32,000 nucleotides of DNA from Haloferax volcanii DS2 (lineage in GTDB: Archaea > Halobacteriota > Halobacteria > Halobacteriales > Haloferacaceae). Location: the NCBI RefSeq assembly GCF_000025685.1, contig NC_013967.1, forward strand, positions 2,400,001 through 2,432,000, in the 5' to 3' direction. The notes beneath the pieces are model-generated. The model saw nothing but the letters and a program-made list of their open reading frames with translations. It had not been told where the DNA came from and did not search any database. A program made the position numbers and the translations under genes. This document shows, one piece after another, positions 3,158 through 21,570 of this stretch (position 1 is the stretch's first letter; each line of letters begins with the position of its first letter).

Positions 3158-3649
3158 TCAGAGGAAGAAGCTCTTGAACGTGTTGGCGACGGTCCAGACG
3201 ACCTGGTCGACGGGGTGGCCCCGCTCGCCGTTGACGCGGATGCGGTCGTCGGAGAGGGCGCTTCGCACCTCGGACATCGGCTCGGGCGACTCGGCGATGG
3301 TTTCGAGCGTCTCTCGGTCCGTCGTGATTCGGGTCGACGCCTCGCTGTCGGGGCCGGTCGACAGGTCCTCGATTCGCATATCGTCTCGCACCGACGCGGA
3401 GAACACCCGAGTCTCGCCCCCGTCTTCGACGTAGACGTTCACCGTTCGCCCCGCGATGAGACTCCGGGCGAACGAGACGTCTAACTCTTCGACGTTGTCG
3501 TTGTACAGCGCGACCCCCTCTTCGAGGAGCCGTTGTGTGTCGGCGTCGCTCGGCGTCTCCGACTCCTGTGCGACCACCGGCGCGGACGCGGCCACCGTGA
3601 CGAGCGCGACGGCGAGGAACAACGAGACGAGACGGGTGGATGTGGACAT
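3158..3649 (-). CDS. Secreted hypothetical protein (possibly an SCP2-like C-terminal region)
   Basis: The ATG at 3649 gives MSTSTRLVSLFLAVALVTVAASAPVVAQE, a signal peptide. The mature part is acidic. The family assignment is tentative. Confidence 0.6.
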   Translation of the reverse strand: MSTSTRLVSLFLAVALVTVAASAPVVAQESETPSDADTQRLLEEGVALYNDNVEELDVSFARSLIAGRTVNVYVEDGGETRVFSASVRDDMRIEDLSTGPDSEASTRITTDRETLETIAESPEPMSEVRSALSDDRIRVNGERGHPVDQVVWTVANTFKSFFL

Positions 3650-18431: not shown

Positions 18432-19448
18432 TTAACCCTGGTTCGATGCGGTAGAGACGTAGCGCACCTCGGGGTCGAGGCGCGGCTGGTCGTTCGGCCG
18501 GATGGCCGGGCGGAACCGCAGGAGGCGCTTGTTGGGGCCCGGCAGCGAGCCCTTGATGAGCGCGTACGAGCCGTCGACCTCGCCGTAGTTGACGAAGCCA
18601 CCTTCGACGGAGGCGTCGTCGCCCTCACCGAGGTCGATGAGGCGCTTGTTGAGCTCGGTGCGCTGGTGGTAACCGGTCTGACCGAGCTGCGGAACCGTAG
18701 AGCGGACACGGGACGGGTTCCAGGGGCCGAGGTTGCCAATACGGCGTCTCCAGCCCTGGCGGGCGTGCTTGCCCTTACGCTTCTGGACGCCCCATCGCTT
18801 GACGGGACCCTGCGTACCCTTACCCTTCGTGACTCCCGCGGCGTCGAGGTACTCGCCGGCGCGGAACACGTCGGACATCTCGTGTTCGCCGCCCTCGGCA
18901 ACGAGGTCGAGGGCGAAGTCGGCGCGCTCCACCATGGAGCCGCCGCCGACGCGAGTCTCCATCACGTCGGGCTTCTTCTTGGGCACGTTCGCGAGCTCGG
19001 AGGGCACCGTGTGCGTGATGACGCGGAGGTCATCGACTTCGCCGGCCTCGACGGCCTCGCGAAGCGCGTCGGCGTCCGAGTCGAACGTGTCTTCTGCCGG
19101 CAGGTCGAGGACGCGGTCGAGTTCGTCGTGGAACTCGCCCGCCCAGACCTCGGTCTGCGGCTTCATACCGTACGGCGTCTGCTCGTAGGCGCGAAGGGCG
19201 ACGGCGCGCATCGGCGGCGTCTCGACGACGGTCACCGGGACGGACTCCTCCATTCCTTCGTGGGGGGAGTCTGCCTCGTCGTTGACCATCATCACGTGGG
19301 TCATACCGGCCTTGTAACCGGCGAAGCCCTGCAGCGCTGGGGAGCCGTCGTCGGACGGCCACGACTTGATGCGTGGAACCTCCTTGACTGCTCGCTTGCG
19401 CGGGCTGAAGCCCATCGAGCCTTTTCGTGGTCTGCTTGGTTGTGGCAT
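18432..19448 (-). CDS. rpl3: 50S ribosomal protein uL3
   Basis: 338 aa, MPQPSRPRKGSMGFSPRKRA.... Confidence 0.96.
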   Translation of the reverse strand: MPQPSRPRKGSMGFSPRKRAVKEVPRIKSWPSDDGSPALQGFAGYKAGMTHVMMVNDEADSPHEGMEESVPVTVVETPPMRAVALRAYEQTPYGMKPQTEVWAGEFHDELDRVLDLPAEDTFDSDADALREAVEAGEVDDLRVITHTVPSELANVPKKKPDVMETRVGGGSMVERADFALDLVAEGGEHEMSDVFRAGEYLDAAGVTKGKGTQGPVKRWGVQKRKGKHARQGWRRRIGNLGPWNPSRVRSTVPQLGQTGYHQRTELNKRLIDLGEGDDASVEGGFVNYGEVDGSYALIKGSLPGPNKRLLRFRPAIRPNDQPRLDPEVRYVSTASNQG

Positions 19449-19452
19449 GGAT

Positions 19453-20295
19453 TCACTCCGTGAGTGTCAGGGAGGCGAGGGAGGCGAACATCGCTTCCTC
19501 CGTTCGCACGACCTCGCTGCCCTGTCGCGGAATCGTATTGAGCCAGAGGTCGAACCCCGGACCAACGGAAGGTTCGACGTCTGCAACATCCTCGGGAGGC
19601 ATCCCGAGCATGTCCGGAAGCCCACGGCCCGGCGACCCGAAGACGACGGTCATGCCGCCGGCATCGGTGATGCGGGCCGTCAAGTCGCCCAATGTGGGGA
19701 CCGACAGCGGTTCGCCATAGCGAGACGTGGCGATTCGCACGCCCGCATCCGGCCTGCCGAGTGCTTCCGTGAGGTCCATGCGGGATACGTCGAAGCCCGG
19801 AAGGGGCTCGTCGACGATCCGCGCACGGACCGGTTCTCGCGAAGAGATCCTGACAGCGACGCGCTCTCCCTCTGTGAGGTCCATCCCGGGAGGGACGAAC
19901 AGGGAGATCGGGTGTTGCATTCCGCAATTGACCCGAACGCGGTCGTCAGGTCCGACCTCGGTCACGATTCCTTCTCGCAACGCGGGCGACTCGTCGGAGT
20001 CGTCCGCGGTCGTAGACGCGACGAGAACGGGCGGCAGGATACCAGCGTAGCGGAGTTCGTCGCGCTTGCCCCAGACCTCTTTGCGGAGGTAGGGGGGCGT
20101 CGCGGCGTACCGAAGTACGGTTTCGACGAACTCGCCGCCCCAGTTGTTCTCGCCGTCTTCGTCGGGGAAGACGACGAGTTCGTTCGCCCGGAAGACCGCC
20201 GCCGCGCGGGCGACGTAGCCGAGTTTGCGAGTTGCCTCGCGTTGATCTTCGGCTTCCCGGACGAGTGAGGACGGCACGAGTACGCTGAGTTTCAT
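19453..20295 (-). CDS. SPOUT-class methyltransferase (DUF171/COG2106-like, putative RNA methyltransferase), first gene of the operon
   Basis: The ATG at 20295 gives MKLSVLVPSSLVREAEDQREATRKLGYVARAAAVFRANELVVF.... The C-terminal block VVFGSPGRGL resembles the trefoil-knot SAM site. The stop lies 4 nt before the rpl3 start. Confidence 0.75.
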   Translation of the reverse strand: MKLSVLVPSSLVREAEDQREATRKLGYVARAAAVFRANELVVFPDEDGENNWGGEFVETVLRYAATPPYLRKEVWGKRDELRYAGILPPVLVASTTADDSDESPALREGIVTEVGPDDRVRVNCGMQHPISLFVPPGMDLTEGERVAVRISSREPVRARIVDEPLPGFDVSRMDLTEALGRPDAGVRIATSRYGEPLSVPTLGDLTARITDAGGMTVVFGSPGRGLPDMLGMPPEDVADVEPSVGPGFDLWLNTIPRQGSEVVRTEEAMFASLASLTLTE

Positions 20296-20525
20296 GCCGG
20301 GTTCATCCTCGTCTCGTCTAGACTGTGGCGTTTCTACCGGGGGCCTACCTAAAAGAGTAGCGAATCCATTCTGGGGTGATAGAGCGTCCCACGACCCAGT
20401 TTGCGGGGGATTGGCGAACGTCGCGTGGTACATAATTACACGGCCGGCGACAGGTCGTCGAAGGCGAATCTCACGTGGTAGCAGGTGGCGCGCCGTCGCC
20501 CGATTTCTCCCCCGTTTCGCAAGTC

Positions 20526-20533
20526 TTATTTAT
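20526..20533 (+). promoter_or_regulatory. Candidate TATA box for the tRNA-Gly transcription unit
   Basis: TTATTTAT is the most AT-rich octamer in the intergenic region, about 55 nt upstream of the mature tRNA 5' end. This implies a leader of about 25-30 nt. Confidence 0.35.
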
Positions 20534-20584
20534 CAACCCGACACTATCGAGTAACGCAGCAGCACGCCACGATACACACGGACT

Positions 20585-20655
20585 GCGCTGGTAGTGTAGT
20601 GGTATCACGTGACCTTGCCATGGTCACAACCTGGGTTCAAATCCCAGCCAGCGCA
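20585..20655 (+). tRNA. tRNA-Gly (anticodon GCC), copy 1
   Basis: Hand-folded cloverleaf: acceptor GCGCTGG/CCAGCGC, anticodon stem TGACC/GGTCA, loop TTGCCAT, T arm CTGGG-TTCAAAT-CCCAG, discriminator A. No encoded CCA and no intron. Confidence 0.93.
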
Positions 20656-20667
20656 CTTCCACCACAT

Positions 20668-20738
20668 GCGTCGGTAGTGTAGTGGTATCACGTGACCTTG
20701 CCATGGTCACAACCTGGGTTCAAATCCCAGCCGACGCA
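20668..20738 (+). tRNA. tRNA-Gly (anticodon GCC), copy 2
   Basis: Positions 8-65 are identical to copy 1. The acceptor stem is GCGTCGG/CCGACGC. It lies 12 nt downstream of copy 1. Confidence 0.93.
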
Positions 20739-20793
20739 CTTTCTGAACGGAACCAAACGAGGAGTCGCCGGACTCCGAGTTTCCGTGGAGTGA

Positions 20794-20896
20794 AGAAGTG
20801 CGGCCAAGAGGGATTCTGAACCCGACCAGTCGCGCACAGCGAACGAAGTGAGCGAGCACGTCTGGGTTCGGTTCAAATCCCAGCCGACGCACTTCT
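20794..20896 (+). repeat. Unit 1 imperfect palindrome (inverted plus direct tRNA 3' end) enclosing a tRNA-Gly remnant
   Basis: AGAAGTGCG (20794-20802) pairs with CGCACTTCT (20888-20896). GGGATT (20810-20815) pairs with AATCCC (20876-20881). TGAACC (20817-20822) pairs with GGTTCA (20870-20875). Confidence 0.8.
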
Positions 20897-20949
20897 GCCG
20901 AACACAAACCTCCGAGAGACCTCTGTGTCTCTCGGTCTTGCGAGGCTGC

Positions 20950-21027
20950 GTGCGGGACGCTGAGATTTGAACTAGCGAGCGAACGCGAGTGAGCGAGTGG
21001 AGTTCAAATCTCAGCCGACGCACTTCT
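20950..21027 (+). repeat. Unit 2 imperfect palindrome with a perfect 14-bp stem, enclosing a tRNA-Gly remnant
   Basis: CTGAGATTTGAACT (20960-20973) is the exact reverse complement of AGTTCAAATCTCAG (21001-21014). The outer GTGCG (20950-20954) pairs with CGCAC (21019-21023). Confidence 0.85.
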
Positions 21028-21097
21028 ACAACGAACCTACCTTCCGAGCGACCGCTGTACGTGTCGCTCGGACTGTGAGTTGTGAATGCTGGACGCT

Positions 21098-21157
21098 GGG
21101 GTTTGAATCGGGGAGCGACGCGAACGGAGTGAGCAGAGCGACTGAGGTTCAAATCCC
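21098..21157 (+). repeat. Unit 3a hairpin (12 bp including two G-T wobble positions)
   Basis: GGGGTTTGAATC (21098-21109) pairs with GGTTCAAATCCC (21146-21157). The G-T pairs at 21101/21154 and 21108/21147 work only on the plus-strand RNA. Confidence 0.7.
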
Positions 21158-21195
21158 GTCTCACCGACTCGGCCGCTGGCCTCGCCGGTGCTCCT

Positions 21196-21241
21196 GAGTT
21201 CACCTCACAGTGTTCGGTGAACTCCCAGCCGACGCACTTCT
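21196..21241 (+). repeat. Unit 3b hairpin plus tRNA 3' end copy
   Basis: GAGTTCACC (21196-21204) pairs with GGTGAACTC (21216-21224), followed by CCAGCCGACGCACTTCT. Confidence 0.75.
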
Positions 21242-21279
21242 CTCTGAACTCGACTCAGTCACCGACGCGTCCCGAAAAC

Positions 21280-21570
21280 TCACGCTTCGTCCCGCGCCCG
21301 CCACCACCAGCCCATCGCGGCCACGCCGACGACGAGGACGACGACGGCGAGCGCGTCGAGGGCGTAGTTGAGCGGCGTTCCCGTCGGCACGGTCCCGGAC
21401 TGCGTCACCTGTAAGAGAGCGTACGAGAGCCACGTGAGACACATCCCGACGAGGAGAACCGCCCGCGTGCCGGAGAGTTTCCCGCGCCGGTACTGCACGG
21501 CCGTGCCTGCGAGGAGCAACAGGTACGCGACGAGCAGGGGAACGCCCCCGAGGTCGGCGAGCACGCTCAC
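21280..21570 (-). CDS. Small membrane protein (about 96 aa, 3 predicted TM segments), start uncertain
   Basis: The hydrophobic C-terminal two-thirds of track ORF 21280..21690 reads LADLGGVPLLVAYLLLLAGTAV...ALAVVVLVVGVAAMGWWW. The upstream 40 codons are Arg-rich junk. Candidate GTG starts lie at 21570 and 21564. Confidence 0.4.
   Translation of the reverse strand: MSVLADLGGVPLLVAYLLLLAGTAVQYRRGKLSGTRAVLLVGMCLTWLSYALLQVTQSGTVPTGTPLNYALDALAVVVLVVGVAAMGWWWRARDEA

Follow-up and report, generated by a model that had tools for sequence, protein, structure and literature searches.

A tRNA-trailing repeat family assembled around copies of tRNA gene ends in Haloferax volcanii and other Halobacteria

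We analyzed a 32,000-nucleotide (nt) stretch of the Haloferax volcanii DS2 main chromosome (the window, whose positions equal chromosome coordinates minus 2,400,000), in which two tandem tRNA-Gly(GCC) genes are followed by an array of partial tRNA copies folded into hairpins. The array consists of three consecutive units, at 20740-20891, 20892-21022 and 21023-21236. The tRNA-derived hairpins make up domain two of a modular unit that trails the tRNA; units of this family are found behind many tRNA genes throughout the class Halobacteria. Our preferred reading, to which we give about an even chance, is that the units are a self-propagating, tRNA-trailing repeat that is co-transcribed with the tRNA and forms serial RNA 3' ends.

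Anatomy of the units

The anatomy was derived by comparing 17 orthologous Haloferax loci and about 60 loci of other Halobacteria, among which unit length ranges from 60 to 320 bp. Each unit starts at the first base 3' of a tRNA discriminator and contains, in this order, a first hairpin (D1), a second hairpin (D2, made of the S' arm, the c2 interior and the T copy) and a YTTCT trailer. The 5' arm of D1 is the pyrimidine-rich trailer (CTTCT or TTTCT), and its tip bears a purine-rich cap, either GCGAAC..GTGAGC or GAGCGNAGCGAG. In D2, the T-loop and the T-stem 3' strand recur in inverted form as the 5' arm, S'; c2 is an exchangeable cassette of few conserved types; and the 3' arm, the T copy, reproduces tRNA positions 52-73 exactly. 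The direct repeat thus defined is 22 nt long, extending in the main class from position 52 (GG ahead of TTCRA) to the discriminator plus or minus a base; in a variant class it begins at the T-stem 3' strand. T copies agree with their own tRNA at 21.3 of 22 positions.

All features of the array are given on the plus strand. In unit 1, a type-X D1 (20740-20793) comprises the trailer CTTTCT and a hairpin identified by folding, with the core GGAGTC-GCCG-GACTCC at 20761-20776; this type is also kept in loci L001, L011, L012 and L013. It is followed by S' (20794-20822), which repeats the tRNA end and trailer in inverted, diverged form, by a type-a c2 (20823-20869) containing ..CCAGTCGCGCACAGCGAACGAAGTGAGCGAGCACGTCTGG.., whose core is shared with a Natronorubrum tRNA-Val locus and whose inner helix covaries, and by the T copy (20870-20891), which matches tRNA positions 52-73 with 0 mismatches and ends in the discriminator A20891. 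The CTTCT trailer behind it (20892-20896) contains a published RNA 3' end at 20895. Unit 2 has a type-Y D1 (20892-20947), folding as CCGAGAGAC-CTCTGT-GTCTCTCGG at 20912-20935 and near-identical to a hairpin in the Halobacterium locus L030, and a D2 (20948-21022) made of S' (20948-20973), a type-b c2 (20974-21000) and a T copy (21001-21022) with 2 mismatches to the tRNA, each compensated in S'.

Unit 3 is a composite. Its type-Z D1 (21023-21087) folds into a hairpin CCGAGCGAC..GTCGCTCGG at 21044-21071 with the junction GTGAGTTGTGAAT, and is identical at 62 of 62 positions in L007, while the 4-fold degenerate sites of the neighboring gene differ by 12%. The first part of D2 (21088-21159) contains S' (21088-21109), a type-c c2 (21110-21145) and the T-loop part of the T copy (21146-21159). 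Two inserted hairpins follow (21162-21228), one at 21162-21190 and one at 21194-21228, both covarying in L002-L007; the second, the GAGTTCACC/GGTGAACTC pair, is a substitute T arm. The 3' half of the split T copy (21224-21236) supplies the T-stem 3' strand, the acceptor 3' strand and the discriminator A21236, and is again trailed by CTTCT. The same split variant occurs in L002-L006, L022, L041, L052 and L060, with covarying stems. Beyond it lies the remnant of a further D1 (CTTCTCTCTGAAC..GTCACCGACGCG.., 21237-21284), which abuts the 3' end of the convergent gene and is represented by a fuller hairpin in orthologues, e.g., GCGACGCG-TCTCGT-CGCGTC in L017. A more extreme splitting was observed in Haloferax profundi (L010, reverse complement of about 3300-3640), where about five hairpins in a row, each with (A/G)(C/G)TCC(C/T)G at its end, interrupt one T copy, as though the T-stem 3' strand had served again and again as an insertion point.

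An initial annotation of this DNA, made from its letters, had described four tRNA-derived copies, each paired with an upstream inverted copy. All sequences quoted there were found in place, and three of the pairs were reproduced: 20794-20822 with 20870-20896; a perfect inverted repeat of 15 nt, 20959-20973 with 21001-21015, plus an outer GTGCG/CGCAC pair; and 21098-21109 with 21146-21157, which includes two G-T positions. The fourth pair (21196-21209 with 21211-21224, 86% complementary) is the substitute T-arm hairpin rather than an inverted copy of a tRNA segment. The hairpins are therefore real, and the units number three, not four, because 21146-21159 and 21224-21236 together make up a single tRNA-end copy, into which two hairpins are inserted. 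The upstream D1 hairpin, conserved in each unit, was absent from that description.

Compared with shuffled sequences, the hairpins of units 1 and 2 folded far better on both strands: the plus-strand z-scores were -4.6 and -5.8, and the minus-strand ones -4.5 and -4.1. The composite third unit, taken whole, showed no such advantage (z -0.8). Two further occurrences of the 27-mer tRNA end, one with 0 and one with 2 mismatches, were found where 0 chance matches are expected. On the minus strand, the D1 hairpins at 20761-20776 and 20912-20935 precede T-rich tracts and score as terminator-like, and might stop antisense transcription from the convergent downstream gene.

The tRNA genes upstream of the array are complete. 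Copy 1 (HVO_2566, 20585-20656, acceptor 3' strand CCAGCGC) was called by ARAGORN and by the Rfam model RF00005 (66.7 bits), and copy 2 (HVO_2567, 20668-20739, acceptor 3' strand CCGACGC) was likewise called by ARAGORN and Rfam; both lie on the plus strand, with gene identifiers taken from the supplements of PMC7237163. Copy 2 is the template type of every downstream T copy in the window. The tandem genes differ solely by compensating acceptor-stem changes (GCGCTGG/CCAGCGC vs. GCGTCGG/CCGACGC); T copies in Haloferax are all of the copy-2 type, and those in genera with a single gene are of the CCAGCGC type.

Distribution and covariation across Halobacteria

The architecture is conserved well beyond the window. 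In a sample of 73 haloarchaeal tRNA-Gly(GCC) loci, defined by their adjoining the same methyltransferase gene, 42 (about 58%) carry one to three units, and the conserved arrangement was found in 62 units from these 42 loci, as well as in the window and in a tRNA-Val locus. The latter, a Natronorubrum tRNA-Val(CAC) gene found by BLAST, is trailed by a unit with the c2 type of window unit 1 and with arms that match tRNA-Val. D1 and c2 types are common to different families of Halobacteria. The core pattern of c2 type a was found at no fewer than 120 metagenome loci, behind at least 28 tRNA species, with arms fitted to the local tRNA. Among the matches listed, 105 of 123 type-a cores lie on the same strand as a tRNA and within 700 nt downstream of it; the others are at contig ends or have no ARAGORN-called tRNA, several of them with tRNA-end sequence just upstream. 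Orientation relative to the tRNA, among the same matches, was forward in 105 cases and inverted in one. The sole inverted cassette of these 106 oriented cores stands at L114 (1135-1340), with a tRNA-Ala GGC. When tRNAs on type-a contigs were chosen independently of the pattern, six of nine were trailed by a copy of their own end.

Nor are the hairpins confined to one strain, since units are present in all but a few of the orthologous Haloferax loci. Across 70 aligned type-a D2 hairpins, 87.5% of cells pair, as compared with 80.4% in shuffles, and pairing survives changes on both sides in 148 cells vs. 63 in shuffles (0 of 500 as high), a signal that collapses in slid controls. The covariation also involves a part of c2 that has no tRNA origin, its inner helix (CG/UA/GC, GC/AU and similar). 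The paired changes between units 1 and 2 noted in the initial annotation, GGGATT/AATCCC to GAGATT/AATCTC and TGAACC/GGTTCA to TGAACT/AGTTCA, were confirmed. In relatives that share the loop type, the corresponding sequences are GCTGGGATTTGAACT / AGTTCAAATCCCAGC, and GAGATT/AATCTC is therefore a true double change in the H. volcanii lineage.

Both arms follow the local tRNA sequence. S' complementarity to the T-loop/T-stem is 4.96 of 7 for the local tRNA vs. 3.97 of 7 for other tRNA species (p=3e-6), and S' tracks whether the local tRNA has TTCAAAT or TTCGAAT (44 UA to 19 CG). Much of the compensatory pattern thus arises from this shared dependence; the compensatory substitutions are real, and mostly reflect arms that track the tRNA and each other rather than demonstrated selection to sequester its 3' strand. 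The earlier proposal of an antisense arm sequestering both the T-arm and the acceptor strand was only partly supported. The T-loop/T-stem part is locally matched, but not the acceptor side: there, S' complementarity is 2.93 of 8 for the local tRNA and 2.76 of 8 for unrelated tRNAs, so that general sequestration of the acceptor strand is unsupported. Units 1 and 2 of H. volcanii do retain the outer GTGCG/CGCAC pairs.

Transcription, RNA 3' ends and the strand signature

A functional RNA, as suggested by the initial annotation, presupposes transcription beyond tRNA-Gly copy 2, and this is borne out by published data. A plus-strand RNA 3' end was mapped at 2,420,895, 157 nt beyond the tRNA HVO_2567, with continuous high coverage and inside the annotated small RNA (sRNA) HVO_2565s3 (PMC7237163, Supplementary Tables 1 and 4, IE-PC). 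This end corresponds to window position 20895, four bases beyond the discriminator of T copy 1 (CAC TTC|T). By a second method (DSM), ends were reported at 2,420,753, 2,421,029 and 2,421,083 (PMC7237163); that at 21029 is seven bases beyond T copy 2, and that at 21083 is near the end of the unit 3 D1. No entries for the array region were found in the dRNA-seq supplements consulted. A TATA-like box, TTATTTAT (20526-20533, plus strand), lies 5' of tRNA-Gly copy 1 and is the sole candidate promoter for the whole array: all-A/T hexamers within 20500-21245 occur only in this box, and 20740-21245 has none.

Other H. volcanii tRNAs also have RNA 3' ends at 137-157 nt, and the tRNA HVO_2785 is followed by a ladder of ends at 27, 118, 151, 270, 388 and 499 nt (chromosome 2,619,788-2,620,260; PMC7237163 supplements). 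The period of about 118 nt in the HVO_2785 ladder suggests an array of four or more units at that locus, outside the window. The consensus Y-T-T-C-T trails both real tRNAs and T copies, and resembles the T-stretch/TC termination motif reported in PMC7237163. Comparison of an empty locus (L063) with a filled one (L045) further places the units between the tRNA and its T5 terminator.

On the RNA side of our preferred reading, promoterless units situated between the tRNA and its T-run terminator are co-transcribed with the tRNA, and each re-creates the context of a tRNA gene, i.e., a structured end plus YTTCT. A unit would then act as a serial RNA 3'-end-forming module, either a back-up terminator or an exonuclease stop. 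Consistent with this, stable hairpins (z -4.6 and -5.8) stand directly 5' of T/C-rich tracts, and RNA 3' ends were mapped there. In these respects the units resemble the hairpin-associated termination sites of H. volcanii (PMC7237163), where RNA 3' ends are likewise mapped and a TC-containing pyrimidine tract comes after a stable hairpin. Unlike those sites, the units take their hairpin from a copied end of the upstream tRNA and are serial and modular, and their terminator role is predicted.

The foremost alternative, which we consider unlikely, is a functional structured RNA: a t-element-like minihelix whose hairpin is selected in the transcript, with the T-arm and acceptor sequestered and with small RNAs released by RNase P and tRNase Z. 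Co-transcription and the annotated HVO_2565s3 speak for it, as do strong covariation, a T copy that stops exactly at the discriminator, with the trailer motif that real tRNAs also have coming next, and unit ends that would pair within a compact two-hairpin RNA. The c2 cassettes and the caps are, moreover, strictly sense-oriented, with sense-to-antisense counts for the purine-rich tips of 18:0 and 35:1 at loci not chosen for their tips.

The strand signature bears directly on this alternative. We counted G·U-type mismatches, which are tolerated in sense RNA only, against A·C-type mismatches. Genuine tRNA stems at the same loci gave 50:5 (10:1), whereas the ratio was about 1:1 in unit stems (D2 arms 104:110; D1 stems 18:27; tRNA-Gly arms 23:16). 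A signature of pairing in plus-strand RNA, to which the initial annotation pointed with the two G-T positions of unit 3, is weak or absent. An excess of G·U appears in a fixed register over the type-a alignment (70:42), and in its best-aligned inner D2 columns it reaches 44:13, a point in favor of the functional RNA. From these counts, most of the unit complementarity appears to lack a signature of selection on a transcript, and the D2 core may have one.

Further points against a functional RNA come from its presumed processing and its conservation. S' generally leaves the acceptor strand unpaired, no match to the Rfam tRNA model was found even at E<=10, and presence and copy number vary among near-identical species. 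The initial annotation expected 3' ends at the discriminator A; the mapped ends lie +4 and +7 nt from it, and tRNase Z cleavage is a prediction. The tRNA-like elements examined by Holzle et al. in 2012, save the 5S one, were reportedly left uncleaved in vitro.

The closest described counterparts on the RNA side are the t-elements, tRNA-like processing signals on which RNase P and tRNase Z are reported to act (PMC4326828). The likeness lies in the organism, H. volcanii, in a tRNA-derived-looking structure within a transcript and beside RNA ends, and in a T copy that retains the T-loop, the T-stem 3' strand, the acceptor strand and the discriminator. The units differ from t-elements in having no cloverleaf (RF00005 and ARAGORN find two real tRNAs only, and the units are unmatched at E<=10), in an acceptor strand that is usually unpaired with mapped ends off the discriminator, and in being modular, repeated and bound to the tRNA gene that is copied. 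Two other RNA-based candidates were rejected. A split, permuted or intron-containing tRNA is contradicted by the complete upstream tRNAs and by ARAGORN and Rfam, which show no second tRNA, with no formal bulge-helix-bulge search made. As for a box C/D or H/ACA guide RNA, reading of the sequence revealed no RUGAUGA box and no ACA placement, and CTGA occurs only in some arms via a 1-nt insertion.

Turnover, mobility and meaning of the units

On the DNA side of the preferred reading, the units would be a self-propagating repeat, every one of them lying between 22-bp direct repeats, whose two arms reproduce the local tRNA end, once directly and once inverted. Recombination in the 22-bp repeats would rapidly alter copy number and module combinations. 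Turnover is indeed rapid: species whose neighboring protein is 99% identical differ in carrying 0-3 units with reassorted D1 and c2 types, and the D1 type order X, Y, Z is maintained in Haloferax despite this turnover. D1 divergence amounts to 0-11%, as compared with 12-15% at 4-fold degenerate sites of the neighboring gene, and some D1 hairpins are near-identical across families, e.g., between Haloferax and Haloarcula or Halobacterium.

Part of this evidence would also fit purely selfish DNA, an explanation that we consider improbable. Here, a miniature non-autonomous insertion element would target the 3' quarter of tRNA genes and duplicate 22 bp, S' being its target-matching sequence and the transcripts and 3' ends mere by-products. 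Target direct repeats flank each unit, an empty and a filled site are paired in L063 and L045, one c2 core stands behind at least 28 tRNA species, and arrays turn over rapidly. The stem mismatch spectrum is symmetric, and the T copy is better kept than S', as expected if insertion regenerates the T copy. Hairpin tips of the kind seen here (a GNA triloop plus tandem G·A) are unusually stable in DNA. However, no integrase or transposase was found near the array, no transposase was seen in the window or near the 123 type-a cores among the matches listed, terminal inverted repeats are lacking (the unit ends, YTTCT.. and ..CGTCTGGCTCC, are not mutually inverted), and no larger parent element was seen, about 105 of those 123 cores being tied to a same-strand tRNA within 700 nt upstream. 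The kept X-Y-Z order of D1 in Haloferax resembles inheritance plus loss rather than repeated insertion, and the repeat stops exactly where the mature tRNA does, a boundary without meaning for a ruler that measures DNA.

REP/BIME, MITE and PATE repeats, the last of which occur in haloarchaea (PMC3119063), share with the units their nature as short, non-coding, multi-copy intergenic hairpin modules with conserved cores and variable stems. The units differ in being strictly tRNA-linked with an orientation of 105:1 among the matches listed, in arms copied from the local target, and in lacking terminal inverted repeats or a known related transposase. PATEs of the IS200/IS605 type were rejected on the grounds that no tRNA link has been described for them (PMC3119063) and that no transposase is nearby. 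An integron attC-like site was suggested by AAC..GTT ends and a G|TT boundary; T-loop exchange would make chimeric tRNAs, of which none were seen. A retro-element primer-binding site does not fit an antisense arm that complements the genomic trailer (AGAAG, GAAAT) rather than CCA. Tandem inversion-duplication by template switching at the native trailer was set aside on two counts, namely a D1 5' arm unlike the empty-site trailer (L063 vs. L045) and a conserved c2 that it leaves unexplained.

Integrase scars, i.e., tandem attL/attR fragments left in tRNA-Gly by since-deleted viruses or plasmids, are very improbable. Integration usually leaves repeated tRNA 3' fragments behind a tRNA (PMC3119063, PMC9897764), and the downstream flanks of the array vary among Haloferax species. 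As in attL/attR repeats, a tRNA 3' part (22 nt in the units) is directly repeated behind an intact tRNA, and arrays are possible (PMC3119063). In contrast to such repeats, those of the units are separated by hairpins of about 100 bp and not by an element with genes, and an inverted copy is present. The units are 60-320 bp long and free of open reading frames (ORFs), have a fixed two-hairpin architecture and have no integrase nearby, and a single cassette serves at least 28 tRNA species. Searches of phage, plasmid and viral-contig collections found neither an attP partner nor a unit or tRNA-Gly end in any halovirus or plasmid. The lone plasmid match was a mis-assigned chromosome piece with the Natronorubrum tRNA-Val example. 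The 828-kb sequence NZ_CP031306.1 (L081/L082, Natronorubrum bangense 'plasmid unnamed1') bears rpl3, the RNA methyltransferase gene next to it and the tRNA-Gly locus, and looks chromosomal. Recent strain-specific inverted duplication or meaningless chance palindromes have a negligible probability: the unit 2 arms, perfect across 15 nt, speak for such an origin, and orthologous and class-wide conservation, the folding z-scores and the 0 expected chance matches contradict it. Classical integrase scars and chance are thus effectively excluded.

Several points weigh against a self-propagating repeat that forms serial RNA 3' ends. The mixed G·U:A·C ratio neither establishes nor excludes selection on RNA, and the reading offers no account of why the T copy keeps its unpaired acceptor part almost perfectly. 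Termination caused by D2 is predicted from the hairpins and their trailers, and the 3' ends could be exonuclease stalls or processing products; we infer both the causal role of the hairpin and the copying mechanism. The periodic ends at other tRNAs are tied to units by inference, with one complete H. volcanii tRNA locus as the base. No clean recent insertion polymorphism was found among the loci compared, and we know of no enzyme or mechanism that produces inverted plus direct copies.

Three observations concern the neighborhood of the array. The genes HVO_2564 and HVO_2565, given as 2,418,432-2,419,448 and 2,419,453-2,420,295 in the PMC7237163 supplements, lie at window positions 18432-19448 and 19453-20295. 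Within the coding region of HVO_2565, 5' of rpl3, an Rfam L4-Archaeoglobi ribosomal-protein leader match (69.9 bits) was obtained at 19850-19949 on the minus strand, and an sRNA with several 3' ends, HVO_2565s, appears in the published tables over this gene. A 171-codon ORF on the minus strand (20688-21203) runs antisense across the whole array, has no Pfam match and is most likely an artefact of high GC content.

The initial annotation did not recognize the hairpins as a described element, and neither did we: Rfam 15 returned nothing in 20740-21300 at the gathering score (the best hit being a chance match, E=5.7), and no description was found in the literature searched, including by diagnostic sequence strings, in which subscription journals are thinly covered and a 2012 Biochimie survey of H. 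volcanii tRNA-like elements may touch some of the loci. It is possible, though in our judgment somewhat short of an even chance, that the units represent an unrecognized, class-wide element of tRNA genes that copies their last 22 bases in direct and inverted form around exchangeable conserved cassettes, being either a target-templated mobile module without a known enzyme or an overlooked component of the tRNA transcription unit (serial terminators or a two-hairpin RNA released by tRNase Z).

If this is true, many haloarchaeal tRNA genes, those of H. volcanii included, would be longer transcription units than annotated, ending in one to several mimics of the tRNA end. The question can be tested directly in a genetically tractable host for which reporter assays, such as the in vivo one of PMC7237163, and RNA-seq data exist. 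It bears on the annotation of tRNA genes, because partial copies are common, on the origin of many "intergenic sRNAs" and tRNA "3' UTRs" in transcriptome maps, on how short repeats are built out of their own target sequence, and on what halts the archaeal RNA polymerase downstream of tRNA genes where the genome is rich in GC.

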